From: Bacteroidales bacterium | GTDB lineage: Bacteria > Bacteroidota > Bacteroidia > Bacteroidales > WCHB1-69 | DNA length: 64,000 nucleotides | Assembly: GCA_017535665.1 (NCBI GenBank) | Contig: JAFXTS010000011.1 | Span: 12,399-76,398 of the forward strand | Direction: 5' to 3' | Notes under the pieces: model-generated | What the model was told of the DNA's origin: nothing | Database searches by the model: none | What the model saw: only the letters and a program-made list of their open reading frames with translations | Part shown: one piece after another, positions 25,477-50,462 of the stretch | Layout: each line of letters opens with the position of its first letter | How positions within the stretch are numbered: position 1 is the first letter of the stretch | Translations under genes and position numbers: made by a program

Positions 25477-27930
25477 CTACTCCCCGGGCTGTCCCATCCC
25501 CATGCCGCCGCCTTGACTGGCTCTGCTCTCCAACTCCATCTTTCCGAAACGGAACGTGATGCCGGCGCTGATGGTGCGACTGACATATTTGGAGTTTGAA
25601 AAACTCTGGTAGTACGGATTCCTGTTCTCGTTCTTGTCGGCGTTCCAGTTGAAAATGTCGTTCACATTCAGATGCACCGAAATCTTGCGGTCGAGGAAGT
25701 CGGCACGCAAACCGCAGTTGATGCCATAGCGCGGCTTTGTAACAAAGAACAAACTGACACTCTTGGAGTTATAGTATGCCGTGGCGTGAACTTCCAACAC
25801 TTTCCACAACTTCGCCCAAAAATTGAGGCGGAAGCTGTAGCCGAGGTTGGCCACCTTGGTCGGCTCGGTGCCATTCCGGAAATTGAACTCCGATTTGCTA
25901 TAATAGACACTCCCGTAAAAGCGGATGTTCATGAATTCCTTCAGCCGATAGGTCACATTCACCTCCCCTCCTGTGTTCATCGACTTGCCCACATTCAGCG
26001 GATAAGAGAAGGTGACAATACGCCCGAAAACATCACTGTAGGCCACATCGGTCAACGAACTGATCTCATCGTTGGAATGTTTGTAGTAAGCACTGATGCC
26101 CACCGAACCGAATTTCTGGAAATACTTGGTCCAGCCCGCCTCCACCGAATGGGTGAAGGTCTGCCTCAGGTCGGGGTTGCCCGTACTGAAAGCGTCTTCC
26201 GTATAACTAATGAACGTGCTGAGTTGGCTGGAACTCGGATTCTGCACCCGCCGTGTGTAACTCAAGTTGAAGTTGTGCATCGACTCGGTGCGATAACTTA
26301 GGTGCAGTGAGGGATACAGACTCCAATAGGTCTTTTTCACATTGTCGGCCGGCGAGTTGAGAATGCGGTAATCGAAACCATCATATTCGCTGCGAAGACC
26401 ACCTTTCAAAGTGAAATTGCCGAACTTGTGCTGGAGGGTGGCATAGGCAGAGAAACTATAATCACGATCTTCGGACTCTTTCAACCTCAACGAATCAATC
26501 TGGTAGGTGGCGAGGGTGCCCGCTAATAGTGTGTCTTCTCGGCTTAAAGAAGACCAATAGGAATAGGAACCAGTGACCCCTACCGAAAGCTCGCCATTTT
26601 TATGGTACGGATAGGTGTAATCCACACTACCATAAGTGCTTCCACCCTGGCTACCCCCTACCGATTTCTTGTCACGGCTCAGGTAGGGATGCGTGGCATA
26701 ATCTCGGATGAAGGAACTATTGCTTTTGTGATAATGCATGCTACCCCCAATGTCGGCACTGATTTTGTGTCCCTCTTTTGGAAATAAATGTTCGTAATAC
26801 ATCCCAGCATATCCGCCACCGCTCAAAATCCGATAGCCATCATCCGTTTTGTAGAAGTAATCATCGGGATGATACAGATACTCGGAACGAAAAGTATAAC
26901 TTTGGCCAAATGATTTGCCCCACGACGGGTATCCGCCTGCCCAGAAGCTGATGCTGTTCAAGGAGTCGAACTGATAATCGCCATTGAAGTACAATCCTCC
27001 CCACAACGAATGGCTGCGTTGCAAGCTGGACCCACACGCCACGGAGGAGGTGTCCATCTGTTCATTGAAACGGGTAGCCATCTCAATCGTGTTCGTCTTA
27101 TAAAACGAATAGTGGGTGGTGATGTAGAAATTGAGTGACAACTTTTCATTACTCCAAACGTATGATAGCCACGGACTTATATCGGGCATCGAGGAACCGT
27201 AAAGCCCAAAGCTGACGAAACTGTTTTTCTTGATTTTGGAGGTGGTGATAATGTTGATGATGCCACCGGTTCCTTTGGCGCTGTACCGTGCCGACGGGTT
27301 GGTGATGACCTCAATCCGCTCCAGCGCATTGGCAGGTAGCTGCTGGATGAAGGTTTTCAGTCCCTCTTCGTTGAGGCGCGACGGCTTGTCGTTGATCCAT
27401 ATCTCCACAGAGGACACCCCCCGGAGGGTGATGTTGCCTTCCACATCCACCTCCACGCCTGGCGCATTTTGGAGGGCATCGGAGGTGGTACCCGTCTGCA
27501 CCGACGGGTCTTCCGACACATTGTAGAGCGTCTTCTCCCCATCTACCATATACACGGGCTTGGAAGCCACTACCGACACTCCTTCGATGGCAGTACTTAT
27601 ATTTTTCATGCCAATAGTGCCAAGATCCACAGTGGCCGTACCCTCCGGCACTGTAACGGAAAGTTCCAGCGTTTCGTAGCCCACCAGCGAGGCTCTTAGC
27701 AGGTAACTGCCCGCCCGTACACGGGAGATGGTGAAACTGCCATCCGCCTCGGTGAAGGCTACCCCCTCTTCCTGCATGGTAGAGTCGGCAGTCACAAGCC
27801 CCACGCTGACATAAAACAGCTTGTCCCTGTTTAAACTGTCCACAAGTGTTCCTTTGACCGTGGACTGCGCCATTAACGCACTATAAATCAGTGTAAAAGT
27901 TAAAATAAAGATAAAACGCAATCGTGCCAT
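25477..27930 (-). CDS. TonB-dependent-receptor-like outer-membrane barrel with N-terminal carboxypeptidase-regulatory-like domain (copy 1)
   Basis: Signal peptide, a CarbopepD_reg-like domain (VKGTLVDSLN...YLLRASLVGYETLE) and a plug-like block (DALQNAPGVEVDVEGNITLRGVSSVEIWINDKPS). A long beta-barrel ends in RFGK. It is about 80 percent identical by eye to 36669..39119. Confidence 0.8.
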   Translation of the reverse strand: MARLRFIFILTFTLIYSALMAQSTVKGTLVDSLNRDKLFYVSVGLVTADSTMQEEGVAFTEADGSFTISRVRAGSYLLRASLVGYETLELSVTVPEGTATVDLGTIGMKNISTAIEGVSVVASKPVYMVDGEKTLYNVSEDPSVQTGTTSDALQNAPGVEVDVEGNITLRGVSSVEIWINDKPSRLNEEGLKTFIQQLPANALERIEVITNPSARYSAKGTGGIINIITTSKIKKNSFVSFGLYGSSMPDISPWLSYVWSNEKLSLNFYITTHYSFYKTNTIEMATRFNEQMDTSSVACGSSLQRSHSLWGGLYFNGDYQFDSLNSISFWAGGYPSWGKSFGQSYTFRSEYLYHPDDYFYKTDDGYRILSGGGYAGMYYEHLFPKEGHKISADIGGSMHYHKSNSSFIRDYATHPYLSRDKKSVGGSQGGSTYGSVDYTYPYHKNGELSVGVTGSYSYWSSLSREDTLLAGTLATYQIDSLRLKESEDRDYSFSAYATLQHKFGNFTLKGGLRSEYDGFDYRILNSPADNVKKTYWSLYPSLHLSYRTESMHNFNLSYTRRVQNPSSSQLSTFISYTEDAFSTGNPDLRQTFTHSVEAGWTKYFQKFGSVGISAYYKHSNDEISSLTDVAYSDVFGRIVTFSYPLNVGKSMNTGGEVNVTYRLKEFMNIRFYGSVYYSKSEFNFRNGTEPTKVANLGYSFRLNFWAKLWKVLEVHATAYYNSKSVSLFFVTKPRYGINCGLRADFLDRKISVHLNVNDIFNWNADKNENRNPYYQSFSNSKYVSRTISAGITFRFGKMELESRASQGGGMGMGQPGE

Positions 27931-28030: not shown

Positions 28031-28138
28031 CCACTTTGCGGACTTATCGTCGAGTGCTGCCTTTCCGAACTCAAACGGCAGGGAAGAATTGCACATACCG
28101 GCAGCAAGAAGAGCGGCGGGTACAGCAGGTTGGTATAG
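28031..28138 (+). pseudogene. relic of the 3' end of a LytTR/wHTH regulator paralog
   Basis: Reading after the stop at 28028-30 gives PLCGLIVECCLSELKRQGRIAHTGSKKSGGYSRLV*. This aligns with the last 28 residues of 45124..46185 (VERCLSELKKQGLIEHTGSKRSGGYSRV*). There is no start codon or upstream domains. Confidence 0.75.
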
Positions 28139-28195: not shown

Positions 28196-31100
28196 TTATT
28201 GCTTCACGAACCGCTTGATGGCTGTTTTGTTTCTGCAACGTATTTTCACAAAGTACATCCCTTGGGCAAAGTTGGCGACGGGAATTTGAATGTGTCTGCC
28301 GGAGGTTTGCATAGAGCGTAAGAGTCTGCCATTCACATCATATATTTCAGCTTCCGTCATGTCAGAAGATTCCTCTTGGAGTCGGATGTTGATGATGTCG
28401 TTGGTGGGATTCGGATAGAGAATGATGTCCGGCTCGTCGTTTATGTTCGCAACCCCTGTGTGAACAAGTGAGGTGTCAACCACAAGATTGTCAAAAAGAA
28501 AGTGGTGTTCCCCTTCACTTTCTGTTGTAAATTTGAATGCTATGTAATGCCCATTCCCTGTATAGGAGCTGAGAAATACGGTATCTTCCACCCAGATTTC
28601 ATCATACGAATCCCACTCGTTCAAATGGAGAGTTCGAATGGGGACAAAGGTGCTTTCGTTTTCGGGATCCTCCATTACCCCGACAGAGAAGAACGACGAT
28701 AGCGGACCTGACTGTTCGTACCAATACCTTATGATTAAACTGTTTATCGGGATGTCAGTGCTAAAAGGTGGGAGAATAGCCATAGAGTACTGGGCACCTT
28801 CCGCCCCTAATGCAAAGTAATTGGGCGGACTTGGCAGTTGATTAAGAATATAGCTTGAGTTTCCTGTAAAGATCATCGGGTACACCTCGAAACCATTGGA
28901 ATACGGGAAACGGGTCCAGCACCATGGGTAGAGCTCTGATCCGTACGTGTCAAAATACTCGGTATAAGGCAGAGTGACAATTTCAGCGCAACCTGTATGT
29001 AATGACAGAGGTGAAGTCCAGACGCTGTAGTCGTTGTTCCCACAAACGGTGCGCACATAAATACTGTACATAGTATTGCCGTTCAGATTGGTGAAAGTGT
29101 ATGACGTGTCCTGGATCACGAAACTTTCGGCATCCGTCCAGCTGCCACCCGCTTCCATGATGGCCACTTCCCATGTGTGGTCATCAGGAGTGCAGGGGGT
29201 GAAATGTATGCCGATTTCATGTGCGCCTATTGTATCCGTGGTAACACTCAGCGGCCTTCCACAAGAGACCCCGACAATGGCGATGTCATCCACGGCGCTG
29301 GGGGGATTGTCGTTGTACCAAGTGTTTCTTCCCCACAAAAAATAGAGTCTTTGCAGTCCTTGGTGATGCTGATCGATGGTATAAGTGTGTCGATTCCAAT
29401 TGAGATCGCGGGTGATAGTGCCTAACAGTTCTGCTCCTTCTGGGGTGTCTTCCCAGTTGGGGGTGGCCGGTGGCCCGATGAACACTTTGAAGGTGTTATC
29501 GGTACCATTGTAGAGTTGTCCTCCGCATTGATGGTAAAGCGAGAGTTCATATTCGTTGAAAGAGGGATCGAAATAGATGTCGCGATAAGTCCAGTACCAG
29601 GTAATCCGCTCATCTTCAGGAATATAGTTGTATTGGTCGGAACCAACATAGAGACTGTGGTTGCTGGATTGATACACAGCGGTTCCAATCTGCCAGTGGG
29701 GCGTGCCCGTAGTAGTGGAGGTCAGCCATTCCGCATTTTCATCAGCATCTTCAAAATCGCAGGAATAAGGAATCCGTCCAAGCATGCTGTAGGTTCGGAA
29801 CGACTGCTCAACCGACCAGATGCTTTCGTCATTCGCCGAACAGTGAGTCTTGACCTTCCAAATATAGTTCGTCGATGGCTGTAAGCCCGAAAGGTGGTAA
29901 CTGTTTGTGTTGACCGTTATCTCCGTAAAGAGACTGTCCTCCTCGGCTTTATAGGCAAGGGTGTAGGTCACGGACGGATTAGCGGGCAACCAAGTGAGTT
30001 CGGCAGAGTGGTCCAAAACACTACTGGCTGACAACTCAACAGGTGCAGGACAGGTAGAGCCTATGATGACAATATTGTCAATGGCCGCTGGCGGATTTGT
30101 CCCCCACGAGCCATCATTTGCCCATAGGAAATACAATCGTTGCATTCCCGAATAACCTGCTGGATTCATCAATTGAATGGTAGTCCACTCACCCGTCTCA
30201 TTGAGCTTGTCACTTAATGCAATGGCTCCTTCTGGAATATCATATCCAGTAGGAATGGTGGGAGGACCAACAAATAGTTGCAGATAGTCGTACTTTGTTG
30301 AATTGTAGGTTTCTCCTATTCCTTTGAAATCGAAGGAAATGGTATAGTTGGCGATAGTATCAGGGATGAAGATGTCACGGCAGGCCCATGTGGACGCTCC
30401 TGTTGTTAAAGTGTAGGCATTGGTGATTCCGCCATCATTGGAAATAAAAAGAGTTGTTTCACTGATGTTGGAGGTGTCACTGCCGATGAACCACTGGTTG
30501 GTGCGGTCATTTTCAAAAAACAGCCAGTTGGCAGCCTCCGTGGAATCTTCAAAATCGCAGGTGTAGGGAAGGTGTGCCACTGGATGAAGAGTATGGAACG
30601 AACTTTCACTCCACAAACTGTATTCATCATCAGAGCAATTACTACGAACTTTCCAATCATAAGATGTTTCATATTGGAAATCATTGATTACTATATAATT
30701 GTAGGATGATGAAAATTCTATGTAGTTTGAATCGGAGGATTCTTTGTAGAGGATGGTATAAGAATTTGCACCATCGACGGCATCCCAAGAGAGAACGAGG
30801 GTGGTATCCATCACATTGGCTGTCAGGTGCGATGGCTTGGCACAGCTGGCAGGTGTTACGGAGAGGTTGTCGATAGCCGCCGGGGGTTGGGTCCCGCCGC
30901 CACCATCATTGCGCCAGAGGAAATAGATTCTCTGTACCCCTGAAAAGGATGCATCGATAGAAAATTCATAATGGGTCCATGTTGAGACCATGCATAATTT
31001 TTCAACAAAAAGAGTAGCACCTTCCGGTGGGGTAATGATGGGATTGCTATTATCATAAGAAATATAGGGAACGTCGGCAGGCGGGCCGACATAAATGTTC

Positions 31101-31480
31101 AAATAATCATATACTCTGTCTCCTATTTTTTCCCCCATCCCTTTGAAATCAAATGCGACACGGCACTCCTGAAAAGTGCTGTCAATGAAAATGTCACGGT
31201 AGGCCCAACTGGTGGAGGCAAAACTGATGTCGTAACTATTGGTAGTGTTCAGGTAAAAACCCACATATAGCGAATAGTTGCCTTCGCTGTGGGTGGAAGT
31301 CCCTAACATCCATTGATTGTAAAAATCGGGTGAGACAACATTCCAGTTGTTCCGCTCTTCCTCGTCTTCAAAACCACAATAATAGGGAACGGTGGCTGGA
31401 ACGGGATCATCTTGTGCATATATTTTCCCGATACCAGTTGCCATGAATAAGAAGGCTGAAAAGAGGATGATTTTTTTCAT
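28196..31480 (-). CDS. large T9SS cargo: tandem lectin/MAM-like (choice-of-anchor-J-like) plus Fn3-like modules and a type-A C-terminal sorting domain
   Basis: Signal peptide, then three full modules of about 270 aa plus a divergent fourth. The recurrent blocks are PY.C.FED...W, W.YRDI.ID, FDFKG.GE, YDYL..(Y/F)VGPP, QR.YFLW.NDG...PPAAIDN, C..P and Y.WKV...CS. The C-terminal domain begins YPNPTNDIINIRL. Confidence 0.8.
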   Translation of the reverse strand: MKKIILFSAFLFMATGIGKIYAQDDPVPATVPYYCGFEDEEERNNWNVVSPDFYNQWMLGTSTHSEGNYSLYVGFYLNTTNSYDISFASTSWAYRDIFIDSTFQECRVAFDFKGMGEKIGDRVYDYLNIYVGPPADVPYISYDNSNPIITPPEGATLFVEKLCMVSTWTHYEFSIDASFSGVQRIYFLWRNDGGGGTQPPAAIDNLSVTPASCAKPSHLTANVMDTTLVLSWDAVDGANSYTILYKESSDSNYIEFSSSYNYIVINDFQYETSYDWKVRSNCSDDEYSLWSESSFHTLHPVAHLPYTCDFEDSTEAANWLFFENDRTNQWFIGSDTSNISETTLFISNDGGITNAYTLTTGASTWACRDIFIPDTIANYTISFDFKGIGETYNSTKYDYLQLFVGPPTIPTGYDIPEGAIALSDKLNETGEWTTIQLMNPAGYSGMQRLYFLWANDGSWGTNPPAAIDNIVIIGSTCPAPVELSASSVLDHSAELTWLPANPSVTYTLAYKAEEDSLFTEITVNTNSYHLSGLQPSTNYIWKVKTHCSANDESIWSVEQSFRTYSMLGRIPYSCDFEDADENAEWLTSTTTGTPHWQIGTAVYQSSNHSLYVGSDQYNYIPEDERITWYWTYRDIYFDPSFNEYELSLYHQCGGQLYNGTDNTFKVFIGPPATPNWEDTPEGAELLGTITRDLNWNRHTYTIDQHHQGLQRLYFLWGRNTWYNDNPPSAVDDIAIVGVSCGRPLSVTTDTIGAHEIGIHFTPCTPDDHTWEVAIMEAGGSWTDAESFVIQDTSYTFTNLNGNTMYSIYVRTVCGNNDYSVWTSPLSLHTGCAEIVTLPYTEYFDTYGSELYPWCWTRFPYSNGFEVYPMIFTGNSSYILNQLPSPPNYFALGAEGAQYSMAILPPFSTDIPINSLIIRYWYEQSGPLSSFFSVGVMEDPENESTFVPIRTLHLNEWDSYDEIWVEDTVFLSSYTGNGHYIAFKFTTESEGEHHFLFDNLVVDTSLVHTGVANINDEPDIILYPNPTNDIINIRLQEESSDMTEAEIYDVNGRLLRSMQTSGRHIQIPVANFAQGMYFVKIRCRNKTAIKRFVKQ

Positions 31481-31520: not shown

Positions 31521-31579
31521 CAAAATTACAATTTTTCAGGCAAATTTTATCCCTTCACTGCCAAAATGTGAACCCTCAC
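31521..31579 (-). promoter_or_regulatory. promoter A: -7 box TAATTTTG plus two motif-1 direct repeats (GTGAGGGTTCAC / GTGAAGGGATA) phased at 21 bp
   Basis: Minus sense reads GTGAGGGTTCACattttggcaGTGAAGGGATAaaatttgcctgaaaaattgTAATTTTG. The repeats are at 31548-58 and 31570-79, the box is at 31521-28 and the ATG is at 31480. Confidence 0.6.
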
Positions 31580-31790
31580 AGCAAAAATGTGACAAACTGC
31601 TATAATGAAGCTGTTGCGAGGGTTTATAATAAATTGGTAATCAAATTTTTATAAAATGCAAAATCAATAGGGCTTTTGCGGGAATAAATGAATTTGTGTG
31701 AAGGGATAGATGAAAATCAGGAAGGCGCTTTCTCCACTTTTCACCTTTCAATTTTCAGTTTTCAATTCTCAGTTTTCAGTTTTCCACATC
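31541..31790. repeat. conserved intergenic module, copy A (homologous to 48935-49177 and partly to 44885-45060)
   Basis: It aligns with copy B over about 250 nt at roughly four-fifths identity by eye. The layout is a minus-facing repeat pair, the AT-rich core ttataataaattg.taatcaaatttttataaaa, a plus-facing repeat pair, then a heptamer array. Confidence 0.8.
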
Positions 31791-32341
31791 GCAAAGCACA
31801 CAAAGCCATATCGGGTTTCCATGCCATCTTGTGGAAGAAAAAAGTGGAGAAATTGCAGATTTTTCGGATTGTCGTAGTCCGCAAGGAAGAAGGGAGCGTC
31901 GGGGTCCCATTCACGGATTTTCATGCACACCAGAATATATTCCGCCACGTGGTCGGTGCGCCATTGGCAGTAAGCATGGGCTTGCTCCGGCGACACGCCC
32001 AAGACGGCGAAATCGTTGAACACTGGGTTGCGCAGGTAGTACCTCGCGAGACTGTCGGGCAGCTGCTGCCGGAGAATCTCCTCATCGGGCAGGGCGGCAC
32101 GGTATGGCTCCGACTCTTTTCCGTAGATGCGTTCCAGCCAATATAGGTACTCAAGCCAATCAAGGTTGGTGATGGGCTCGGAGTCGCAGTACAGTCCGGA
32201 GTCGCAGTACAGCCCGTTTCCAACCATGATCAATTTCTGTGGCAGGGCTTTCTTCTGGTAGTTTTTCAGGGTGAGGTGCTGTCCGGCCGCTGAGGTTGCA
32301 GCCGCCACCAAAAGACAAAGGATGATGTGACGGAGTTTCAT
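31769..32341 (-). CDS. short secreted FGE/SUMF1-like domain protein
   Basis: Signal peptide. EPITNLDWLEYLYWL and NDFAVLGVSPEQAHAYCQWRT resemble the N-terminal half of FGE-sulfatase domains. It contains an in-frame GLYCDS x2 duplication. Confidence 0.5.
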   Translation of the reverse strand: MKLRHIILCLLVAAATSAAGQHLTLKNYQKKALPQKLIMVGNGLYCDSGLYCDSEPITNLDWLEYLYWLERIYGKESEPYRAALPDEEILRQQLPDSLARYYLRNPVFNDFAVLGVSPEQAHAYCQWRTDHVAEYILVCMKIREWDPDAPFFLADYDNPKNLQFLHFFLPQDGMETRYGFVCFAMWKTEN

Positions 32342-32413
32342 TCGTTTTTCTTTTTAAAACGAAATTGGGGGCGGCAATCTTGGGGGGATGGGGAGGAAAT
32401 ATAACAAAATTGT

Positions 32414-32460
32414 CTTTATTTCGCTAAAAACACAAAAAAGTATATTTTAGCGGAATAAAG
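32414..32460. repeat. 16-nt inverted repeat (CTTTATTTCGCTAAAA / TTTTAGCGGAATAAAG) with 15-nt spacer
   Basis: There is one mismatch between the arms. It lies between the stop at 32566 and the start at 32341, and its arms contain the ATTTCGCT core of motif 2. Confidence 0.7.
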
Positions 32461-32565
32461 TGATTTTTATGACGAATCTTATTTTTTACTGGAAGAAATT
32501 CAACGGGGCATCCAATCCCTGACCCAAGAGCTGGAATCTATCAGTTGGAGTGACGTTCCTTCCCG

Positions 32566-33441
32566 TCAGAAATTCGTTTCCACCAAGTTAATCTCCAACC
32601 GCGAGCCGTCGATGTTGGCGTTGTCCATTTTCACAAAACCGTAGGTATCGTTATAGTATGCTGTGAGGCAAGTGGTTCCGATGCGGCTTTTGGCCACTGC
32701 CTCCACCTTCACGCACGAAAGCGTGCCCATGGGTGTGACCACCTCGCAATCCGTGTCGGTAATTCTGTATTTGTACCGGTTGACGATTGTGCCCGTCCAT
32801 GTTTCCCATCGCACGTCCCCCCAATGGCTGCCGATGGTGAGCCGCCATTTCCAAGTTTTCCCTTTTTTGACGGGGTATTGAATGTACGGGAAAGGATTGA
32901 GTTCGAGGATTCTGAACAGACAAGATCTATTGGGATGCATCCATAAATTCCGTTCGTTCTCTACAATGCCGGACATTTCCAAGGGCAATCTTGATGTCTG
33001 CCCATACAAGAGAAAGTAAAACTCCTCCACGGTTTGGTTGTAATCTTTTCTGAAGCTCCCGTTGTTGCAGGCGACTTTCAACAGATAACGGTTGATGCAT
33101 GAATCAGAAGAATCAAAGACATCCGAAAAGGAAAAATCAGAACGATAGAAGGTGTAATAAGAGGTGTCGCCAGCTTCCGTAAGTTCATACCCTTGATGAG
33201 GAACACGTTCATACCTCATATAGCGTTCCTTGCCCCGCGGGTTGAAATAGTGGAACTCGAAGGTAAACTCACGGTCAGCTTGGTAGATTTTGTTGTCCTC
33301 GGTATAGCGGCAGGGGTTCGAGGTGTCATTTCGCACCTCAAACCAAATGCCACCGCCGCTTTGTGAGTATTGGGTGGGTTGGGATTGGGCGGTGAAGCTG
33401 CAGACAAGGCAAAGGAAAATGGAGAGGAGGTGGTGTTTCAT
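32566..33441 (-). CDS. hypothetical secreted protein
   Basis: Signal peptide MKHHLLSIFLCLVCSFTAQSQ. Coding-like composition and tightly packed in the operon. No family recognised. Confidence 0.6.
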   Translation of the reverse strand: MKHHLLSIFLCLVCSFTAQSQPTQYSQSGGGIWFEVRNDTSNPCRYTEDNKIYQADREFTFEFHYFNPRGKERYMRYERVPHQGYELTEAGDTSYYTFYRSDFSFSDVFDSSDSCINRYLLKVACNNGSFRKDYNQTVEEFYFLLYGQTSRLPLEMSGIVENERNLWMHPNRSCLFRILELNPFPYIQYPVKKGKTWKWRLTIGSHWGDVRWETWTGTIVNRYKYRITDTDCEVVTPMGTLSCVKVEAVAKSRIGTTCLTAYYNDTYGFVKMDNANIDGSRLEINLVETNF

Positions 33442-33452
33442 AGGGGTGGGGA

Positions 33453-34310
33453 TTATTCTTGTTTGATTTCTTCGGCATCCATCACCAACCGTATGCCGGA
33501 CGCCTGATTGGTTCTTACTGAAGGGTTTTCACCTCTGCGCGTATCCAGTTCACAAGCGCGATTGGGATACACGCCCCAGCTTCCACCACGGAGCACTTTC
33601 AGATGTCCTTCCGATGGACCGGTCGGATTAACATACAGCGTGTCGGGTTGATAATAGTAGGAAGAAAACCAGTCGCTGCACCACTCCTCCACATTGCCGC
33701 TCATATCGTATAGCCCGAAAGCGTTTGGTTTCAGTATTCCAACAGGATGCGAATTATGTCCCACGTTATCCCACGACCAAGCCAATTCTTCAAAATTGTC
33801 GCCACCGCTGAAGCGGTCATTGTAATGCTTGGCACGTGCGGCATATTCCCATTCCGCCTCCGTGGGCAGGCGAAAATGTTGCCCGGTGAGTGCATTCAGT
33901 GAGTCCACAAACTCTTGCGCATCATACCAGGAAAGACGCTCTACCGGACATACTCTGTAATCAAATTCGTAATACTTCAATACCGGAGTGTTGGTTTTGT
34001 TGTACCAAGAGGGATTCTTGTGCATCACGGTTTCATAGACCAATTGCGTTACCTCGAATTTTGAAATGTAATAACTTGAAAGCACAATGGTGTCGTATCC
34101 GTTGTATGCGCCTTCTGCAACGACTGGTTTTAAATGGTAATGTCGGCAGGTGTCGCCATAGAAATTCTTTCGCACAAAGGTGTCTGCCGGTATATAAACC
34201 ATTTCAATTTTAACCTTGTCGTTGATTCCGATGGTAACGACTTTGTTCTTCTGCGCGAATGTTGGAAGTAACAAAATAATTACCAGTAAGATAAGAATAG
34301 TGTGCTTCAT
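33453..34310 (-). CDS. formylglycine-generating-enzyme (SUMF1/FGE-sulfatase) family protein
   Basis: Signal peptide. Motifs FEVTQLVYETVM, PVERLSWYDAQEFVDSLN, RLPTEAEWEYAAR, GLYDMSGNVEEWCSDW and VLRGGSW. Confidence 0.85.
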   Translation of the reverse strand: MKHTILILLVIILLLPTFAQKNKVVTIGINDKVKIEMVYIPADTFVRKNFYGDTCRHYHLKPVVAEGAYNGYDTIVLSSYYISKFEVTQLVYETVMHKNPSWYNKTNTPVLKYYEFDYRVCPVERLSWYDAQEFVDSLNALTGQHFRLPTEAEWEYAARAKHYNDRFSGGDNFEELAWSWDNVGHNSHPVGILKPNAFGLYDMSGNVEEWCSDWFSSYYYQPDTLYVNPTGPSEGHLKVLRGGSWGVYPNRACELDTRRGENPSVRTNQASGIRLVMDAEEIKQE

Positions 34311-35344
34311 TATTTACTTGCTTTTGAACCTTTTTCGTAATACATTCTGTGAAAATCACCTTTGGCATGTTCGGCATCGATTTCTCGTTCCATTTTGGCG
34401 GCTTCGGCGGCATCGTCCTCTTCATCGCCATAAATTCTGCTCTGCCTGCTTCCCGTGATGTAATAGGTATTATGCTCGCACTCCCACACGCGCTTTTTCA
34501 CAGCATCTTGCCACGTTTCAGCCAATCCTAACTTTTTCCTGTTTTTGTCAATCTGTTTGAGATTATCGGGTTGCTCGACAAACAAAGTGTTTCCAATGTA
34601 ATAAATATTATTGAGTCCACTTCCGTAATGATGTTCTTTACCTGGATGCACATCTTCCCACCAAGCCTCGAATTCCATATACTTTTCGGCAGGGAAAATC
34701 CCAGCCATCACTTTCTTGCGAAGCAGTGGTTGCAAGTCATAGTGGTCCGTCTGCACGGCATGGAGCAGTACAACACCCAACATTCCCATATAGTAAAATC
34801 CCGCCACATATTCGTTGAAGTCAGGATATTCACGGTAAAATTGCTTGATGAGTTTACGGTTCTCATCATCCAATGCAAACTGTTCTGGCGAACGCCCCAT
34901 ACCCTGTATTCGGTATCGTTGGTCACGCTCAATGATATGCTCCAAGATCGTGTCAAATTTCACACAGTAAGTTTTAATCGTTTGAGCTTCGATGTCAAGC
35001 AATTGTTGGTAAACAACCGTGTCAAAGTGCGGCGACATATACTGATATGAATTAGCCAATCCCTCATCCCCCAATTCAATCCGGCATTTTGCTATCTGCA
35101 AAATTATCTCGTTGTTTTCGGTTTGAACGGCCACCCAGTAGGCGGTACGCATTTCGCGTGCCAGCGGTTCCTTGATGCTGAAAGCTCGGGTATAGAGCGA
35201 ATCCGCAAGCTGCAGATTATCATCGCAGATGGCCAGCTCGGCCTGGTTAACCCAATAGTAGTACTCTTGAACTTGCTTGCGGCTCTGTGCGGAAAGGGTA
35301 AAGAATACCGAGCAGAGGAGGATGGTGAAGAGGATTTTTTTCAT
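34310..35344 (-). CDS. hypothetical secreted protein, family Y copy 1 (paralog of 41129..42172)
   Basis: Signal peptide. It shares the N-terminal block YYYWVNQAELAICDDN with YNYWVNQAELAICDSN in copy 2, and a similar C-terminal block (GNTLF...PDNLK.I..NR.K...AETW...VKK). Confidence 0.65.
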   Translation of the reverse strand: MKKILFTILLCSVFFTLSAQSRKQVQEYYYWVNQAELAICDDNLQLADSLYTRAFSIKEPLAREMRTAYWVAVQTENNEIILQIAKCRIELGDEGLANSYQYMSPHFDTVVYQQLLDIEAQTIKTYCVKFDTILEHIIERDQRYRIQGMGRSPEQFALDDENRKLIKQFYREYPDFNEYVAGFYYMGMLGVVLLHAVQTDHYDLQPLLRKKVMAGIFPAEKYMEFEAWWEDVHPGKEHHYGSGLNNIYYIGNTLFVEQPDNLKQIDKNRKKLGLAETWQDAVKKRVWECEHNTYYITGSRQSRIYGDEEDDAAEAAKMEREIDAEHAKGDFHRMYYEKGSKASK

Positions 35345-35403
35345 TGGTATTGCTGTTTATCTGGTTGCAGGTTTATATAATTACAAGTTATGGATGAAAG
35401 TCA

Positions 35404-36528
35404 TTACTTGAAGCAATTGTTCATTCCCCAATTGAAGCGATAACCGTACTTTTCTGCAAAACTTGCTTTTGCACGCTCCACATGTAGCGGAATAATCCAG
35501 TATTGCTTGCGCAATGCGTCGGTTTCATCTTCCGGCATAAAGTATTTTTTGAAAAAATCAGCTTGGCTAAAGTTCCCTATTCTAAAGAACAAAGTAGAAT
35601 ATTTTCCGCAATCGCATTTTTCAGTGTGCATACGACTCTGATCAATCAAAACCGTATACTCTCGAGGATGGAGATTGCCTTTTGCAATTTCATCATAAAT
35701 ATTTAAGAACACCTTGAACGGACAAGGATTGTGAACCATATAAATAGCTGCTGCTGTTTGGCCCAAATACCAGTAAGAAAGTTCTGGACAATCCATTTCA
35801 TTAGTATTGTCTTTCACCCATATTGTATCCCCGGTCTCCAAAACCATTGGAGTTAACGGTTTGAGCGGAGCAAGACACAAACTATCCGCGCTTTTAAATA
35901 CCAATTGATTGTAATTCAAATCATTATTATTCAGATTTTTATACAATAAAGAGTCATTAATTCCTATAATTTTAGCCCCAGGATAGCCATATTCATTAAT
36001 TTTTTGCAATAACTCCTCATCCCATTTTGCAAAATGTTCTTCATACATTCTATTTGGATCTGGAGAGCGCCGGTATTTCAATTCTTCTAATGAAAAATGG
36101 TATAACCAAGCTAAATAATCTTGATTAATAGTGGCAAGGTAGGCCTGTCGTGTTTTTTTCCCATCATCGCTTTTGAAATATTCAAGGAATTCTTTTTTTA
36201 CTGTCATTTTTTTCCAAGCAGGAATATAAGACAAATGCGCTGGCCTCAAACCATAACCAACTCCCCTTTTCAAATATTTCATATAGTCACGATGATAGAA
36301 ATGTGCCAACTGCGCAGCATTCATCAGGTCGTGTACATAATTAAACTCAAAGTTGTTGAAGGCCTGGTCGTAATATTGGAAGCCAGCATCAATCTTGTTG
36401 CTATCAAAAATGGCGCACTCGGCTTTGTAAATCAGCTCGTGGTAATGCCAGTAGTTGGTGTCCTGCTGTGCCTTGGCGGGCAGGCACGCGCCAAAGACAA
36501 GGGTAATGGAGAGAAGGAGGTGTTTCAT
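35404..36528 (-). CDS. hypothetical secreted protein, family X copy 1 (paralog of 42404..43546)
   Basis: Signal peptide. The N-terminal 130 aa or so are about 75 percent identical by eye to copy 2 (AQQDTNYWHYHELIYKAEC...GFQYYDQAFNNFEFNYVHDL). They share the C-terminus LRKQYWIIPL.VERAK..F.E..GYRFNWG..NCFK. Confidence 0.7.
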   Translation of the reverse strand: MKHLLLSITLVFGACLPAKAQQDTNYWHYHELIYKAECAIFDSNKIDAGFQYYDQAFNNFEFNYVHDLMNAAQLAHFYHRDYMKYLKRGVGYGLRPAHLSYIPAWKKMTVKKEFLEYFKSDDGKKTRQAYLATINQDYLAWLYHFSLEELKYRRSPDPNRMYEEHFAKWDEELLQKINEYGYPGAKIIGINDSLLYKNLNNNDLNYNQLVFKSADSLCLAPLKPLTPMVLETGDTIWVKDNTNEMDCPELSYWYLGQTAAAIYMVHNPCPFKVFLNIYDEIAKGNLHPREYTVLIDQSRMHTEKCDCGKYSTLFFRIGNFSQADFFKKYFMPEDETDALRKQYWIIPLHVERAKASFAEKYGYRFNWGMNNCFK

Positions 36529-36608
36529 AGGGGTATGGTTTTAGGGGTTAATAATGTAACGGGGATATTTCCCCTTTTATTTTAGAAGGGAAACTGTTCG
36601 CTGGAAAC

Positions 36609-36667
36609 CTTCTACCTTCTACTTTTCAATTTTCAATTCTCAATTTTCAATTCTCAATTCTCAATTT
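36609..36667. repeat. heptamer tandem array (TTTTCAA/TTCTCAA, about 7 units)
   Basis: acttttcaattttcaattctcaattttcaattctcaattctcaattt lies immediately downstream of the stop at 36669. Confidence 0.85.
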
Positions 36668-36668
36668 A

Positions 36669-39119
36669 CTACTCTCCCGGCTGCCCCATTCCGCCGCCAC
36701 CTTGGCTGGCCTTGCTCTCCAACTCCATCTTTCCGAAACGGAACGTGATGCCCGCGCTGATGGTTCGGCTGATGGACTTCGAGGTGGAAAAATACTGGTA
36801 ATAAGGGTTGGTCCCTTCGTTCTTGCTGGCATTCCAGTTGAAGATGTCGTTCACGTTGAGGTGTACTGAAATCTTGCGGTTGAGGAAGTCGGCGCGCAAC
36901 CCGCAGTTGATACCGTAGCGCGGCTTCGTGACTGTAAACAGGCTGACACTCTTGGAACTGTAGTAGGCAGTGGCGTGGACTTCCAGCACCTTCCACAATT
37001 TGGCCCAGAAATTGAGGCGGAAACTGTAACCGAGGTTGTCGATCTTGGTCGGCTCGGTACCGTTGCGGAAGTTGAATTCCGATTTGTCATAGTGGATATT
37101 CCCGTAAAAACGGATGTTCATGAACGCTTTGAGACGGTAGGTGACATTCAACTCCGCCCCCGTGTTCATCGTCTTGCCGGCGTTCAGCGGCATGCTGAAG
37201 TTGACAATTCGCCCGAAAACGTCACTGTAGGCTACATCGCTCAGGTCGTAGATTTCGTTGTTGGAATGTTTGTAGTAGGCACTGATGCCCACCGAGCCAA
37301 ACTTCTCGAAAAACTTGGTCCAGCCTGCCTCAACCGAATGAGTGAAAGTCTGCTTCAGGCCGGGATTTCCAATGCTATAACTCTCTTCGTCATAACTGAT
37401 GAAGGTGGTTAGTTGTTCGGCGTAAGGATTCTGTACCCGCCGTGTGTAGCTCAACTTGAAGTTGTGCATCGACTCGGTGCGGTAACTCAGATGCAACGAT
37501 GGATACAAGCTCCAGTAGGATTTTTTCACATTGTCGGCTAAGGAGTTGAGGATGCGGTAGTCGAAACACTCGTATTCGCTGCGGAGTCCGCCCTTCAGGG
37601 TGAAATTGCCGAACTTGTGCTGGAGGGTGGCATAGGCAGTAAAACTGTAGTTGCGTTCTTCGCTGTCTTGCAATCGCAACGAATCAATCTGGTAGTCCTG
37701 GAGGGTGCCAGCCAAAAGCGTGTCCTGCCGGATGACCTCCGAAGCAAAGTTGTAGTAGCCGTCCACCCCTACCGACAACTCGCCGTTCTTATGGTACGGA
37801 TAGGTATAATCTATACTGGCATATACATTGTACATGCTGCTGGTAGCACCCGATTTCTTATTCCGGTTTAGATAGGTCTGTTTGTCGTATTCCCGAATGA
37901 AATACCGCTTGGCATTGTAATAATAGGTGTTGCCGCTGAGGTCGGCACTGATTTTATGTCCTTCCTTTTTGAATTTGTGTTCATAATAGATGCCTCCGTA
38001 TCCGCCACCGCCTCCATACTGGCTGCCCTCGGCAGATTCGTAGGAATAGACATCGGGATTGTAAAGATACTCTGAACGCAAAGTTTGGGTGCTGGTTGAC
38101 GACTTTCCCCATGACGGGTAGCCACCCGCCCAGAAACTGATGCTGTTCAGGGTGTCGAACTCATAGTCACCATTGAAGTAGAAGCCGCTGGAAACCGAAT
38201 GACGCCGTTGCAAGCTAGTTCCCCACGTCGCCGAGGAAGTGTCCATCTGTTCGTTGAAACGGAGGGCTCTTGACTGCGTACTCGTCTTTTGGAATGAATA
38301 GTAGGCGTTGATGTAGAAGTTGAGCGACAGTTTGTTGTTGCTCCACACATACGAAACCCACGGTCTCACATCGGGTTGGGAGGAACCGCTTATGCCAAAA
38401 CTGACAAAGCTGTTCTTCTTGATTTTGGAAGAGGTGACGATGTTGATGATGCCGCCGGTCCCCTTGGCGCTGTACCGTGCCGACGGGTTGGTGATGACCT
38501 CAATCCGTTCCAACGAGTTGGCGGGAAGTTGCTGGATGAAGGTTTTCAGCCCCTCTTCGTTGAGGTGCGACGGTTTGTCGTTGATCCAGATCTCCACGGA
38601 GGAGACGCCGCGAAGGGTGATGTTGCCTTCCACGTCCACCTCCACACCCGGCGCGTTCTGGAGCGCGTCGGAGGCGGTGCCCGTCTGCACCGATGGGTCT
38701 TCCGACACGTTGTAGAGCGTTTTCTCGCCGTCCACCATATAGACGGACTTGGTGGCGGTCACCGAAATTCCTTCGAGCGCGGTACTTATATTTTTCATGC
38801 TAATGGTGCCGAGATCTACGGTGGACCTCCCTGCTGGCACTGTAATGGGAAGGTCCAGCGTTTCGTAGCCCAGATACGAAGCTCTCAGCAGGTAGCTGCC
38901 GGACGGAACACTGGAAATGGAAAAGCTGCCGTCAGCCTCGGTGTAAGCTACCCCCATCTCCTGCATGGTCGAATCGGTCGTGACAATGCCAACACTGACA
39001 TAAAACAACTTGTCTTGGTTCAAACTGTCCACGAGCGTTCCCTTGACGGTGGTCTGCGCCAGCAACGCACTGGAAGTCAGTGTGATAGACATGATTAGCA
39101 ATAAATGGAATCGTGTCAT
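36669..39119 (-). CDS. TonB-dependent-receptor-like outer-membrane barrel with carboxypeptidase-regulatory-like domain (copy 2)
   Basis: Same architecture as 25477..27930 and collinear similarity throughout. Confidence 0.8.
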   Translation of the reverse strand: MTRFHLLLIMSITLTSSALLAQTTVKGTLVDSLNQDKLFYVSVGIVTTDSTMQEMGVAYTEADGSFSISSVPSGSYLLRASYLGYETLDLPITVPAGRSTVDLGTISMKNISTALEGISVTATKSVYMVDGEKTLYNVSEDPSVQTGTASDALQNAPGVEVDVEGNITLRGVSSVEIWINDKPSHLNEEGLKTFIQQLPANSLERIEVITNPSARYSAKGTGGIINIVTSSKIKKNSFVSFGISGSSQPDVRPWVSYVWSNNKLSLNFYINAYYSFQKTSTQSRALRFNEQMDTSSATWGTSLQRRHSVSSGFYFNGDYEFDTLNSISFWAGGYPSWGKSSTSTQTLRSEYLYNPDVYSYESAEGSQYGGGGGYGGIYYEHKFKKEGHKISADLSGNTYYYNAKRYFIREYDKQTYLNRNKKSGATSSMYNVYASIDYTYPYHKNGELSVGVDGYYNFASEVIRQDTLLAGTLQDYQIDSLRLQDSEERNYSFTAYATLQHKFGNFTLKGGLRSEYECFDYRILNSLADNVKKSYWSLYPSLHLSYRTESMHNFKLSYTRRVQNPYAEQLTTFISYDEESYSIGNPGLKQTFTHSVEAGWTKFFEKFGSVGISAYYKHSNNEIYDLSDVAYSDVFGRIVNFSMPLNAGKTMNTGAELNVTYRLKAFMNIRFYGNIHYDKSEFNFRNGTEPTKIDNLGYSFRLNFWAKLWKVLEVHATAYYSSKSVSLFTVTKPRYGINCGLRADFLNRKISVHLNVNDIFNWNASKNEGTNPYYQYFSTSKSISRTISAGITFRFGKMELESKASQGGGGMGQPGE

Positions 39120-39163
39120 ATTCGATTGTTTTTTAGATACAAAAAAACTATTCGAGCGATGTT

Positions 39164-39195
39164 TACCCCCTCACAGCGACAAAGTGAACCCTCAC
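39164..39195 (-). promoter_or_regulatory. motif-1 direct-repeat pair (21-bp phase) upstream of barrel copy 2, overlapping the stop codon of the sigma-fusion gene
   Basis: Minus sense reads GTGAGGGTTCACtttgtcgctGTGAGGGGGTAA. ccctcac occurs at 39068+100 (39168-74) and at 39189-95, an offset of 21 nt. The ATG is at 39119. Confidence 0.55.
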
Positions 39196-41051: not shown

Positions 41052-41128
41052 ATCGTATTTTAATGTATAACGTGGAAATCGGAAAAGGGGCCAACGTTAT
41101 TTGAAAAAAATATTATATTGTAAAACAA

Positions 41129-42172
41129 TCAGTTGAGGATGATGTACTCCCCTTTAACCTCCCCTTTGTCAATCTTTTCCCTGAGGTTCCGCGCGTCCGT
41201 TTCCGGATCGGCGGTGGCGAGGTTCGACCGCGGGAAGAAATAAAACTCACATTGCTCACTATACACATACTTGGCCTTTTTTACCGTTTCCTCCCACGTT
41301 TCCGCACAAAAAACCTTGTGCCGGTTCCGATGAATCTTTTTCAGATTGTCGGGGGTGAGGATGAAAAGCGTATTCCCTATCTGATAAACGTTATGTATGG
41401 CATACTCGTCGTATCTTTTTTTGCCGGGAGCAGATGCGTTGCAGAGATCCGAGGTCTGCATGTAGTCGCGAACGTTCAGGTTTCCCTTCCGCACCTCTTT
41501 ATACCATGTTTTGGAGAGTGGAAAGCCCCGTTTGTAGGCGTTGTGTCGAAAAACGAGGCCCAAGTGCTCCACAGCGATGCCCGCCGTATAGACATTCACG
41601 AGAGGATATTTCTTATATAGCTGCTTGATTCTCTGTAAGTTGTTGTAATCCACGCTGTCCAATATCCGTTCAAGTTCTTTGTCGTCTGCGGAGCACAAGC
41701 TATTTTTCCGCACGGCTTGGTCGGAGGCGAGGATGTCCTCTATTTCATCGTGCAAATCAGGGATGATGGTCTTTTTGCAGTTGAGGTACAGCGTCTTCGC
41801 CGTTTGGTACAGGTCGGCATCCTTGATTGTGTCGTCGATAAAATCGGCGGGTTCTTCGCCCGAGCGGATGAGCGCATAGATGCAGATGAACGCGCGGTCG
41901 GTGTTTCGCAGGAATTCCGTATTGACCCGAAACGCAAAAATGGCATCCTTGCGGAACGGAAGGTGGCAGGTGAACGCCTCGTCATAGCAGTCGGAGGCCC
42001 GCTGGAAGTTGCTGTCGCAGATGGCCAACTCGGCCTGGTTGACCCAGTAGTTGTACTGTTTCACACTTGCGGGTTTGAACTGGACGCTTGCGTCATACTG
42101 CTTGCCAATGGTCTGGCATAACCCGTTAAAAAGCGTGCTCAAGATGCACAGAATAAGGAGGATCTTTTTCAT
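41129..42172 (-). CDS. hypothetical secreted protein, family Y copy 2
   Basis: The start is moved to the internal MKKILLILCILSTLFNGLCQ, which is a signal peptide. The 69 upstream codons of the listed ORF lie in AT-rich non-coding-looking DNA. Confidence 0.65.
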   Translation of the reverse strand: MKKILLILCILSTLFNGLCQTIGKQYDASVQFKPASVKQYNYWVNQAELAICDSNFQRASDCYDEAFTCHLPFRKDAIFAFRVNTEFLRNTDRAFICIYALIRSGEEPADFIDDTIKDADLYQTAKTLYLNCKKTIIPDLHDEIEDILASDQAVRKNSLCSADDKELERILDSVDYNNLQRIKQLYKKYPLVNVYTAGIAVEHLGLVFRHNAYKRGFPLSKTWYKEVRKGNLNVRDYMQTSDLCNASAPGKKRYDEYAIHNVYQIGNTLFILTPDNLKKIHRNRHKVFCAETWEETVKKAKYVYSEQCEFYFFPRSNLATADPETDARNLREKIDKGEVKGEYIILN

Positions 42173-42403
42173 ATCGTTAATAAATTGTCGTGTCTCTATT
42201 CGAGAGAAAGACGTGTTTTTTTTCAGAAAGTGCCAAATAAAAAGAGAACTGTGGATAATGGAGTGTTTTTTTAACGATAAAAGCCGCTGATTTATTGGAC
42301 TTTTGATTAAAATTTCTAAGTGAACAAACAAAATGTTTTGCCATGAAACATTATTTATACATATTGTCCCGCTCGGCAAAAAAATAGTACTCTATTCCCC
42401 CCC

Positions 42404-43546: not shown

Positions 43547-43626
43547 AAGGGGCGGGGGATTTTTTTGTAAAAAGTTGGTTTTGAAGGAGGTGGTATAGAA
43601 ATAACGATAGTTTTCGCAATTTATTT

Positions 43627-43658
43627 TTCAGTGAAATATATAAATTGTTCAGCGAAAT
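43627..43658 (-). promoter_or_regulatory. pair of motif-2 direct repeats phased at 21 bp, upstream of family X copy 2
   Basis: On the plus strand, ttcagtgaaat at 43627 and ttcagcgaaat at 43648. In minus sense this reads TATTTCGCTGAA-N9-TATTTCACTGAA. It lies 81-112 nt upstream of the ATG at 43546. Confidence 0.55.
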
Positions 43659-43684
43659 AAACATTGAATGACCGCTTCGCGCCC

Positions 43685-44311: not shown

Positions 44312-44314
44312 GTT

Positions 44315-44794: not shown

Positions 44795-44866
44795 GGCTGA
44801 AAAAATATTGGTTGCAAAGGTACGATTATTTTCTTGATGAATATACTTCATTGCGATTTTCAGCAA

Positions 44867-50456: not shown

Positions 50457-50462
50457 GGGTTA

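Follow-up and report, generated by a model that had tools for sequence, protein, structure and literature searches.

Why does the same pair of direct repeats stand, at exactly the same phasing, upstream of four minus-strand operons within one stretch of a Bacteroidales genome, and which protein reads it? The stretch, called the window below, comprises the 64,000 nucleotides (nt) from position 12,399 to position 76,398 of contig JAFXTS010000011.1 (assembly GCA_017535665.1; Bacteroidales, lineage WCHB1-69). A sequence-only reading of this DNA had likened the repeats to the operators of LytTR regulators and had proposed a local regulon. The analysis of the window, of public genomes, and of metagenomes revealed that the repeat pair is very probably the promoter-linked operator of a regulon dispersed around the genome. 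This operator is likely to be that of a one-component, membrane-anchored LytTR factor encoded in the window itself (45124-46185, plus strand), acting as described below.

Repeat pairs in the window

A search with the pattern CCYTCAC-N14-CCYTCAC, allowing at most one mismatch, returned four matches in the window, at plus-strand coordinates 31552-31579, 39168-39195, 44899-44926, and 48946-48973. Chance predicts 0.07 matches, and none of 100 dinucleotide-preserving shuffles of the window reached four, which bears out the four minus-strand pairs at an exact 21-nt offset seen in the sequence-only reading. The coordinates given there were 3 to 4 nt too low and came in number pairs differing by 22, although the offset of 21 nt given in words was correct. 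The core ccctcac, described as common to every copy, does not hold for the proximal half-site of the 48.9k copy, which is ATGAGGG (CCCTCAT). Aligned on the minus strand, the four sites read GTGAGGGTTCAC-N9-(G/A)TGA(A/G)GG(G/A)(A/T/G)T(A/T)AA, with the half-sites offset by exactly 21 nt in each of them. The 12-mer GTGAGGGTTCAC is invariant in all four, and its exact copies in the window are in those four places only. A position weight matrix (PWM) trained exclusively on the sites of other genomes gave the window sites 37.7 to 52.9 bits, compared with a maximum of 10.8 bits in the shuffled window.

All four 34-nt cores lie on the minus strand, as do the genes behind them. Core 1 (31546-31579, GTGAGGGTTCACATTTTGGCAGTGAAGGGATAAA, 48.2 bits) is upstream of 28196-31480, which encodes a type IX secretion system (T9SS) cargo protein of 1094 amino acids (aa) with a signal peptide and fn3 and Por_Secre_tail domains. 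Core 2 (39162-39195, GTGAGGGTTCACTTTGTCGCTGTGAGGGGGTAAA, 37.7 bits) is an internal promoter site followed by 36669-39119, coding for an 816-aa TonB-type outer-membrane barrel (CarboxypepD_reg, Plug, and OMP_b-brl_3). Core 3 (44893-44926, GTGAGGGTTCACATTTTGGGTGTGAAGGGATAAA, 52.9 bits) faces an operon in which 44315-44851 (alternative start around 44794), for a protein with a Cys-rich N terminus and a transmembrane (TM) segment, is directly followed by the radical-SAM gene 43685-44311 and then by further minus-strand genes. Core 4 (48940-48973, GTGAGGGTTCACATTCCTGCTATGAGGGATTAAA, 52.6 bits) precedes 47399-48823, encoding a 474-aa T9SS cargo protein with SprB repeats and Por_Secre_tail, and is kept in five loci of other genomes (L011, L016, L018, L029, and L035). 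The domain scan is in line with the two T9SS cargo proteins, the Cys-rich/radical-SAM operon, and the TonB-type barrel that had been named as downstream genes.

In three of the four sites, a box lies 17 to 18 nt downstream of the core: TAATTTTG at 31521-31528 (minus strand, 17 nt after core 1, in the promoter of 28196-31480), TAATTTCG at 44867-44874 (minus strand, 18 nt after core 3), and TAATTTTG at 48915-48922 (minus strand, 17 nt after core 4). These are the three boxes, with the same spacing, that had been placed 19 to 20 nt away when counted from ...GGGATA. The 39.2k copy has only an atypical TTTTTTTG in their place. TAnnTTTG is the −7 element of the primary sigma factor of Bacteroidetes, which goes with a TTTG near −33 (PMC7366714). 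The proximal repeat occupies the −33 region of these sigma-A-type promoters, as had been proposed.

Core 2 differs from the other three in its surroundings. Its distal half-site includes the TGA stop codon of gene 39192-41051, and it has nothing beyond the 34-nt core in common with the other window copies, which already indicates that the 34-nt core is the functional unit. A site identical to core 2 is present in two metagenome loci (L055 and L064).

The operator in other genomes and metagenomes

Scanning one genome per GTDB species with the exact pattern gave 27 loci, 21 of them on different contigs of seven metagenome-assembled genomes (MAGs) of rumen Bacteroidales. The same scan of metagenomes gave 49 loci, around 34 of which were judged real. 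Six genome matches outside Bacteroidales (L008, L010, L013, L015, L017, and L026) and about 16 metagenome matches were set aside as chance; they had no −7 box, no conserved spacer, and an odd composition. The combined set comprises 46 nonredundant sites of the 34-nt core in rumen Bacteroidales. The 42 of these that lie outside the window were fetched with a fixed-spacing pattern, so that their 21-nt offset is by construction; the period is backed independently by further tandem units, found in L022 and, at −21, in four loci.

The features that the search pattern left free are informative. A TAnnTT[TC]G box is found 17 to 18 nt after the core in 22 of the 26 sites of the genome set (the 21 MAG loci and the window) and in 28 sites of the metagenome set, but in none of the compositionally odd chance matches; the chance rate of such a placement is about 1e−3 per site. 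The spacer (ACATTTCTG.T, 1 to 2 bits), the tail GATAAA, and the box itself (TGTAYTTTTGCC) are also conserved, while upstream of −10 the information content of the aligned sites is about 0.2 bit per position. Many sites have only the 34-nt core and the −7 box in common, in flanks that are unrelated. A gene starts 64 to 152 nt downstream of the core start at nearly all real sites, with only a few lacking a clear downstream open reading frame (ORF) or a −7 box. Unrelated flanks, fixed spacing to the −7 box, and linkage to gene starts indicate a promoter-linked operator rather than a repetitive extragenic palindromic (REP) element or a miniature inverted-repeat transposable element (MITE); no conserved body with defined ends, independent of gene starts, was found among the sites. 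The check in public genomes and metagenomes thus went against a dispersed mobile element, the outcome that had been named as fatal to the operator idea.

The regulon is not merely local, as had been assumed, since in each related genome the sites are spread over many contigs. The downstream genes fall into at least 19 distinct families, and in nearly all of them the product has a signal peptide, the signal of a lipoprotein, or TM segments. Among these families are fn3 and SprB T9SS cargo, outer-membrane barrels, Fib_succ_major lipoproteins, Cys-rich TonB_C proteins, DUF4153, DUF4424 with YARHG, and a 66-aa Cys-rich lipoprotein. T9SS cargo proteins are part of the set, which is nevertheless better characterized as one of cell-envelope and secreted proteins than as a T9SS-specific regulon. 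Some target promoters carry three to four tandem 21-nt units instead of two (L022, around 6247; L024/L038; L043/L078/L083), and the last unit of these arrays is mostly still 17 to 18 nt from the −7 box, the exception being L043, where the box is at 28 nt.

A membrane-anchored LytTR protein as candidate regulator

The candidate regulator, 45124-46185 (plus strand, 353 aa), is encoded divergently from core 3. It is a true LytTR protein by profile and by predicted fold: Pfam finds the LytTR domain (PF04397) at residues 173-244 (E = 5.9e−9; 36.5 bits for a cutoff of 22.6) and a C-terminal winged helix (HTH_24, 28.2 bits). The first 150 or so residues are hydrophobic helices, with hydropathy segments at about 5-30, 41-59, and 66-95. 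An AlphaFold2 model (53 homologs; predicted local distance difference test [pLDDT] score, 79) has helices at 2-26, 37-62, 67-104, and 106-151, a beta-rich domain at 154-247, a disordered linker at 270-291, and a winged helix-turn-helix (wHTH) domain at 294-352. The model thus predicts a helical membrane bundle (about 1-150) with several N-terminal TM helices and no periplasmic domain, followed by LytTR (about 152-250), the linker, and the winged helix (about 294-353). A sequence-only search of PDB with the regulator gave no significant match, and the LytTR and wHTH domains were recovered there by fold search only. The best Foldseek matches in PDB are LytTR domains, namely, 3d6w, AgrA (4xqj, 3bs1, and 4g4k), and ComE (4cbv), with TM-scores on the target of 0.75 to 0.77 and root mean square deviations of 2.5 to 3.0; MarR/ArsR-type winged helices come after them.

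Both Pfam and fold evidence agree with the LytTR-domain protein that had been read divergently from one of the sites. The analogy with the AgrA and ComE families holds for the LytTR domain and fails for the response-regulator architecture, which is replaced by a membrane-anchored one-component protein with a winged helix. No receiver domain was found in 45124-46185: there was no Response_reg match, and an NCBIfam LytR match covered the DNA-binding part only, far below its cutoff. No histidine kinase was found among the large ORFs of the window that were scanned (49 proteins) or in the eight ortholog contexts, nor was there another classical transcription factor or receiver domain among the window proteins scanned. 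The regulator adjoins no gene for DUF2154, NfeD, or a small multi-TM partner in any of the nine contexts.

The homologs among the 120 matches listed are full-length and 56 to 88% identical, and PF04397 is found on all 120. One is named [quoted passage not shown] by NCBI and another “uncharacterized membrane protein” by IMG. The family is small, with only about 300 representatives among 1.8 billion at 50% clustering. Many of the distant relatives listed align over residues 5-351 or so at 22 to 45% identity, which suggests that the whole architecture may be kept in them. L035 and L009 encode a 253-aa paralog lacking the winged helix.

At most loci, a gene for an AAA_14 and DUF4143 ATPase stands directly beside the LytTR gene, in one orientation or the other (window 46191-47267, minus strand; L029 11131-12423; L030 11247-12395; L031 11397-12395; L035 8389-9753 and 11101-12342), and is missing from L028, L033, and L034. 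This ATPase may be a functional partner of the LytTR protein.

Linkage of regulator and operator across orthologs

The promoters of the LytTR gene were compared in a set of 11, made up of eight ortholog contexts (L028 to L035; 56 to 70% identity), the tandem paralogs in L030 and L035, and the window; the proteins they serve are 56 to 99% identical, and the co-occurrence with the operator was followed down to about 55% protein identity. In the window, a same-sense repeat pair with an offset of 22 nt (45023-45057, plus strand; ATGAAGGAATAAATG-N-GTGAAGGGATAAA) lies upstream of the LytTR gene as a putative autoregulatory operator, followed by the −7 box TATTTTTG (45092-45099, plus strand). Such a pair, offset by about 21 to 24 nt, is present in all 11 promoters (in L028 to L031, the equivalent pair was found computationally), and in all of them it is followed by the box TATYTTTGC, about 25 nt before the LytTR start and invariant in the alignment of 12 ortholog promoters. 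Some orthologs have a weak third repeat between the pair and the box. The repeats at its own promoter imply that the regulator probably controls its own gene.

On the other side of the control region, 10 of the 11 promoters have the canonical pair and a −7 box facing a divergent signal-peptide gene; the second tandem paralog in L030 has only a degraded copy of the canonical pair. This divergent partner varies by lineage, being a 1094-aa fn3 cargo protein or a lipoprotein of 66, 349, or 166 aa, which indicates that the pairing of regulator and operator is conserved rather than any particular operon. In the distant orthologs L032 to L034, the core has drifted (e.g., GAGAGAGTTCAT-N9-ATGAGATGGATTAAA in L032) and its position is kept: L032 and L033 retain the 18-nt spacing to the −7 box, and in L034 a TATTTTTG box lies 19 nt after a shifted core. 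At least five of the seven MAGs that carry the motif have a LytTR gene inside the 8-kb locus of a site; the 98.8%-identical protein of L007 (ruminal_MAG_166) identifies this MAG as a representative of the window’s species.

Between the two divergent pairs lies an AT-rich element, often after a poly-G/C run (…GGGGGGGTAATATGTTAATAATCAATATATTATAAAA…), at about 44960-45015 in the window, at about 9835-9880 in L028, and in equivalent positions elsewhere. It was seen only in control regions beside LytTR genes or in their duplicates and might be bound by the winged helix or by some other factor.

Proposed mode of action and points against it

By analogy with published LytTR regulators and with the Caulobacter factor HigX, two LytTR domains would sit head to tail on one face of the helix, each on one of the two 21-bp-phased units (approximately GTGARGG and an A/T-rich tail). 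The proximal unit, ending 17 to 18 nt upstream of TAnnTTTG, would stand in for the missing −33 element, and the bound protein would most likely recruit sigma-A RNA polymerase in a class-II-like activation. The targets would be promoters around the genome for secreted, lipoprotein, outer-membrane, and T9SS cargo proteins. At its own promoter, the same-sense pair further upstream, together with the weak third repeat beside the −7 box, would provide feedback, and the membrane bundle would set the activity of the regulator. We infer the binding of the repeats by the product of 45124-46185 and the activation that would follow from it; the choice of the LytTR domain as the one that would contact the repeats has the same standing.

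Several observations weigh against this model. The link between regulator and operator rests on conserved colocalization, and the LytTR gene could be a mere member of the regulon. Several genomes have two to three LytTR paralogs with near-identical operators, so that more than one protein may be the reader of a given site. Three window copies (31.5k, 44.9k, and 48.9k) are duplicated whole control regions of the LytTR type with about 230 nt in common; therefore, the window does not offer four independent observations, and independence comes from the other genomes. The half-site GTGARGG with its A/T-rich tail is unlike the published LytTR half-sites, ACCNCTTAN or ACAGTTAAG. Repeat sequences are poorly conserved between LytTR systems, as noted by Zou et al. 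(PMC6193735), which makes a mismatch with the consensus a weak criterion. The 9-nt spacer is itself conserved (ACATTTCTG.T), more than a simple operator with two half-sites needs, and could be a second contact made, for instance, by the winged helix. Finally, the pair at the regulator’s own promoter is 47 to 49 nt from the −7 box, compared with 30 to 31 nt at the targets. This shift of 17 to 18 nt does not correspond to whole turns of the helix, so that one and the same mode of action cannot apply to both promoter classes. It suggests more contacts than those of two simple half-sites.

Alternative explanations

The strongest competitor accepts the operator as genuine but gives it another reader, either an unlinked transcription factor, with the LytTR gene a simple member of the regulon, or, as a variant, the winged helix of the same protein. 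The unusual half-site, the extra contacts hinted at by the conserved spacer, the second DNA-binding fold of the LytTR protein, and the 253-aa paralogs without it in L035 and L009 speak for this explanation, as does the derivation of the proposed regulator-operator link from colocalization. We consider it unlikely, since all 11 regulator promoters keep their own pair, and 10 of them the canonical pair too, even where the neighboring genes are wholly different. Moreover, a head-to-tail geometry of 21 to 23 bp is typical of LytTR proteins, whereas it would be unusual for dimeric wHTH proteins, with their preference for palindromes, and no other transcription factor is conserved beside the sites. 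In the ~230-nt copies, the inverted half-sites and the rearrangements around them recall a dispersed MITE- or REP-like element, or recombination sites for cassettes of surface-protein genes, with the promoter association being secondary. A 13.3-kb insertion relative to L029 has its breakpoints in such regions, the flanks are 96 to 98% identical but enclose a LytTR allele with only 74% identity, and L007, from the same species, is arranged differently again. Homologous recombination between repeated control regions would yield such rearrangements anyway, whereas in other genomes the majority of sites have nothing in common beyond the 34-nt core and the −7 box, lie in unrelated flanks, hold a near-constant orientation to a start codon 64 to 152 nt away, and keep the 17- to 18-nt spacing. 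No terminal inverted repeats, target-site duplications around single sites, or transposase were found, and an origin of this kind appears very improbable.

Two further explanations treat the repeats as something other than an activator site. TTCACA-N17-GATAAA superficially resembles a −35/−10 pair and might be recognized by an alternative sigma factor of the extracytoplasmic function (ECF) type, such as the sigma/DUF2807 fusion 39192-41051, whose gene ends exactly at the second site. Such a promoter would not need the −7 box of the primary sigma factor, which is at a fixed distance in 22 of 26 sites of the genome set and in 28 of the metagenome set. There is no ECF sigma gene beside the sites in L028 to L035, and tandem arrays of two to four units fit an activator and not a sigma factor, so that we give this recognition sequence only a slim chance. 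The least credible proposal, to which we attach almost no weight, is an invertible promoter, a phase-variation switch of a kind common in Bacteroidales, with the inverted half-sites (TTTATCCCTTCAC ... GTGAAGGGATAAA, about 120 to 150 bp apart in three window copies) as recombinase sites. Neither −7 box is enclosed by the inverted pairs, so inversion would switch no promoter; besides, the majority of sites carry one pair only, the neighborhood has no conserved invertase gene, and none of the 46 sites occurs in an inverted-orientation variant. An operator of the membrane-anchored LytTR factor, which fits the published layout of 9-bp direct repeats with an 11- to 13-bp spacer just upstream of a promoter (PMC6193735), remains the reading that we prefer, and the LytTR interpretation of the sequence-only reading is supported.

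Duplicated control regions and rearrangement of the locus

Three window copies share a segment of about 230 nt. Besides the core, it holds a partial third unit, 21 nt further upstream (PWM matches at 48994 and 31600), the AT-rich central element between the minus- and plus-strand pairs, and a second pair of the same half-sites on the plus strand (45023-45057, 49069-49103, and 31676-31710, offset 22). Only at 45.0k is there a gene behind the plus-strand pair, the LytTR gene. The pair at 49069-49103 (plus strand, offset 22) is an orphan with no gene downstream, in a duplicated LytTR-type control region, and is kept in L029 at 14659. It may drive an antisense or small RNA, or it may be a retained upstream binding site. 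The pair at 31676-31710 (plus strand) is likewise without a downstream gene, and its distal half is degenerate (TTGCGGG), as a relic of the LytTR-side half of a control region; the fn3 orthologs in L029 and L035 are transcribed divergently from a LytTR gene. Both orphan pairs aim into the 3′ ends of minus-strand genes. No Rfam family matches the ~230-nt control regions, so they were rejected as a known RNA; an Rfam 15 scan of the whole window at the gathering threshold found only a tRNA at 9230-9316.

Tandem repeats of heptamers (TTTTCAG/TTTTCAA/TTTTCCA, three to seven copies) are found at 31738-31784, 36623-36667, and 49146-49175, at or beside the 3′ ends of minus-strand genes. The array at 31.7k overlaps the last codons of gene 31769-32341, and two of the three arrays (31.7k and 49.1k) adjoin duplicated control regions.

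The comparison with a relative, L029, with flanks that are 96 to 98% identical, revealed a 13.3-kb insertion in the window (31589-44868, compared with L029 9769-9834) whose breakpoints fall inside the duplicated control regions. Between the conserved flanks, the LytTR allele of the window is only 74% identical to that of L029 at the nucleotide level, and L007, from the window’s own species, shows a third arrangement of the region. Recombination between control regions has clearly occurred. The 13.3-kb block contains eleven minus-strand genes: the Cys-rich and radical-SAM genes, two of unknown function, the ECF sigma/DUF2807 fusion, the TonB-type barrel, two more unknowns, an FGE-sulfatase, and two further genes. 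L029 likewise lacks the TonB barrel at about 25505-27804. The window has, just 3′ of the gene for the fn3 cargo protein (28049-28132, plus strand), an 84-nt relic; its 28 aa match the winged-helix C terminus of the LytTR protein at 79% identity, and L029, L035, L009, and L018 carry this relic too.

A bolder view, which we hold to be doubtful, is that paralogs of the TM-LytTR-wHTH type, each with two DNA-binding domains, all read what is essentially one 21-bp-phased operator, with several membrane or envelope signals converging on a single secretome regulon that comprises lipoproteins, T9SS cargo, and outer-membrane and TonB-like proteins, and that the ~230-bp control regions double as recombination substrates through which strains would swap regulator alleles and cassettes of surface-protein genes. 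The cell surface of rumen Bacteroidales would then vary both in its regulation and in its genomic make-up.

Target families and other genes of the window

The Cys-rich/TM family is a recurrent target of the operator. In the window protein (44315-44851) and its homolog in L004 (372-1001), an N-terminal cytoplasmic motif, C-x(21)-C-x5-C-x3-C-x2-C, is combined with one TM segment, and the L004 homolog has a TonB_C domain. The family may be a TonB-like transducer with a metal-binding head. A peptide-modification operon was considered for the radical-SAM neighbor and rejected, as NCBIfam gave no family of the type found with ribosomally synthesized and posttranslationally modified peptides (RiPPs); this protein resembles a small glycyl-radical-activase-like enzyme.

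The window contains pairs of paralogs, namely, TonB-type barrels (25477-27930 and 36669-39119), radical-SAM activase-like proteins (43685-44311 and 49794-50456), and proteins of about 420 aa (41129-42379 and 50463-51731). In the barrel and radical-SAM pairs, only one member is directly behind an operator site or adjoins the first gene behind one; the PWM scan found no sites upstream of the paralogous barrel (25477-27930) or of the second radical-SAM cluster (49794-51731).

The gene that ends in core 2, 39192-41051 (minus strand), is a single ORF of 619 aa in which an ECF sigma factor (regions 2 and 4, residues 1-170) is fused to a DUF2807 “GIN” adhesin-head domain, and its product may be a fused sigma/anti-sigma-like protein. 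At 14393-17913 (minus strand), genes for an aromatic amino-acid lyase, a short-chain dehydrogenase of the ketoreductase (KR) type, and a beta-ketoacyl synthase stand in a row beside an ECF sigma gene (13749-14330) and a gene for a CHU_C T9SS protein. They may form an aryl-polyene or flexirubin-type pigment cluster, unconnected with the operator.

Relation to known LytTR systems

Published LytTR operators consist of 9-bp direct repeats separated by 11 to 13 bp, directly upstream of the promoter, and their regulators activate their own operons (PMC6193735). AgrA, ComE, and PlnC share with the present system the LytTR beta-fold, the paired direct repeats with a period of about 21 bp immediately upstream of the core promoter, and the presence of such repeats upstream of the regulator’s own gene. 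In the agr P2/P3 layout, divergent promoters each have their own pair, as at the LytTR locus here. Unlike the response regulators AgrA, ComE, AlgR, and LytR, the protein described here has no receiver domain and no histidine kinase but has a membrane bundle and an additional winged helix. The half-site is also unrelated to those of AgrA, ComE, and PlnC, the promoter is of the Bacteroidetes −7/−33 type, and envelope and secreted proteins take the place of peptides or toxins as targets.

Closer in logic are the LytTR regulatory systems (LRS) HdrRM and BrsRM, in which LytTR regulators are controlled at the membrane with no phosphorelay and have autoregulatory direct repeats with a 12-bp spacer (PMC6193735). 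These pair a soluble regulator with a cotranscribed small membrane inhibitor, whereas here the membrane segment is fused and there is no separate partner. Fusion of TM segments before LytTR is known from the “LRS-like” operons of Bacteroides, and the plus-strand pairs of the window have the same 22-bp period as these (PMC6193735). For the Bacteroides TM-LytTR genes, in silico analysis has described 11-bp repeats with an 11-bp spacer and a TATCTTTG −7 box at the operon’s own promoter (PMC6193735). The present system differs in its repeat sequence, its added winged helix, and its dispersed regulon.

For HigX of Caulobacter crescentus, a factor with four TM segments and LytTR, experiments have demonstrated action on envelope genes from the membrane (PMC13384398). 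Like the protein described here, HigX combines an N-terminal helical membrane bundle, with no periplasmic domain, and LytTR, and envelope and transport genes are overrepresented among its targets (PMC13384398). HigX, however, binds an 8-bp inverted repeat with no spacer (PMC13384398), in contrast to the 21-bp-phased direct repeats described here. It also lacks the winged helix, belongs to a different phylum and promoter type, and shows no detected sequence similarity beyond the domain. Literature searches combining LytTR with Bacteroidetes direct repeats, or with type IX secretion, returned nothing specific. In the literature searched, we did not find the operator, its regulon of secreted and envelope proteins including T9SS cargo, or the domain architecture; the class of mechanism is familiar.

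Knowledge of transcription factors and their operators in Bacteroidota is very scant beyond a few model species and almost nonexistent for the uncultured Bacteroidales of the rumen. How T9SS cargo and surface proteins are regulated is largely unexplored. The finding amounts to a clean new regulon in a poorly studied group, with no new principle. It provides a regulator-operator pair that can be tested, with a 34-nt operator of fixed promoter geometry, an unusual TM-LytTR-wHTH candidate, and a coherent set of envelope and secreted targets. The many natural promoter variants, with two to four repeat units and two spacing classes, are material for dissecting how a membrane-bound factor would activate transcription. 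If the LytTR protein reads these sites, the system would extend the operator logic of LytTR from Gram-positive quorum sensing to membrane-tethered one-component regulators at promoters of the −7/−33 type.

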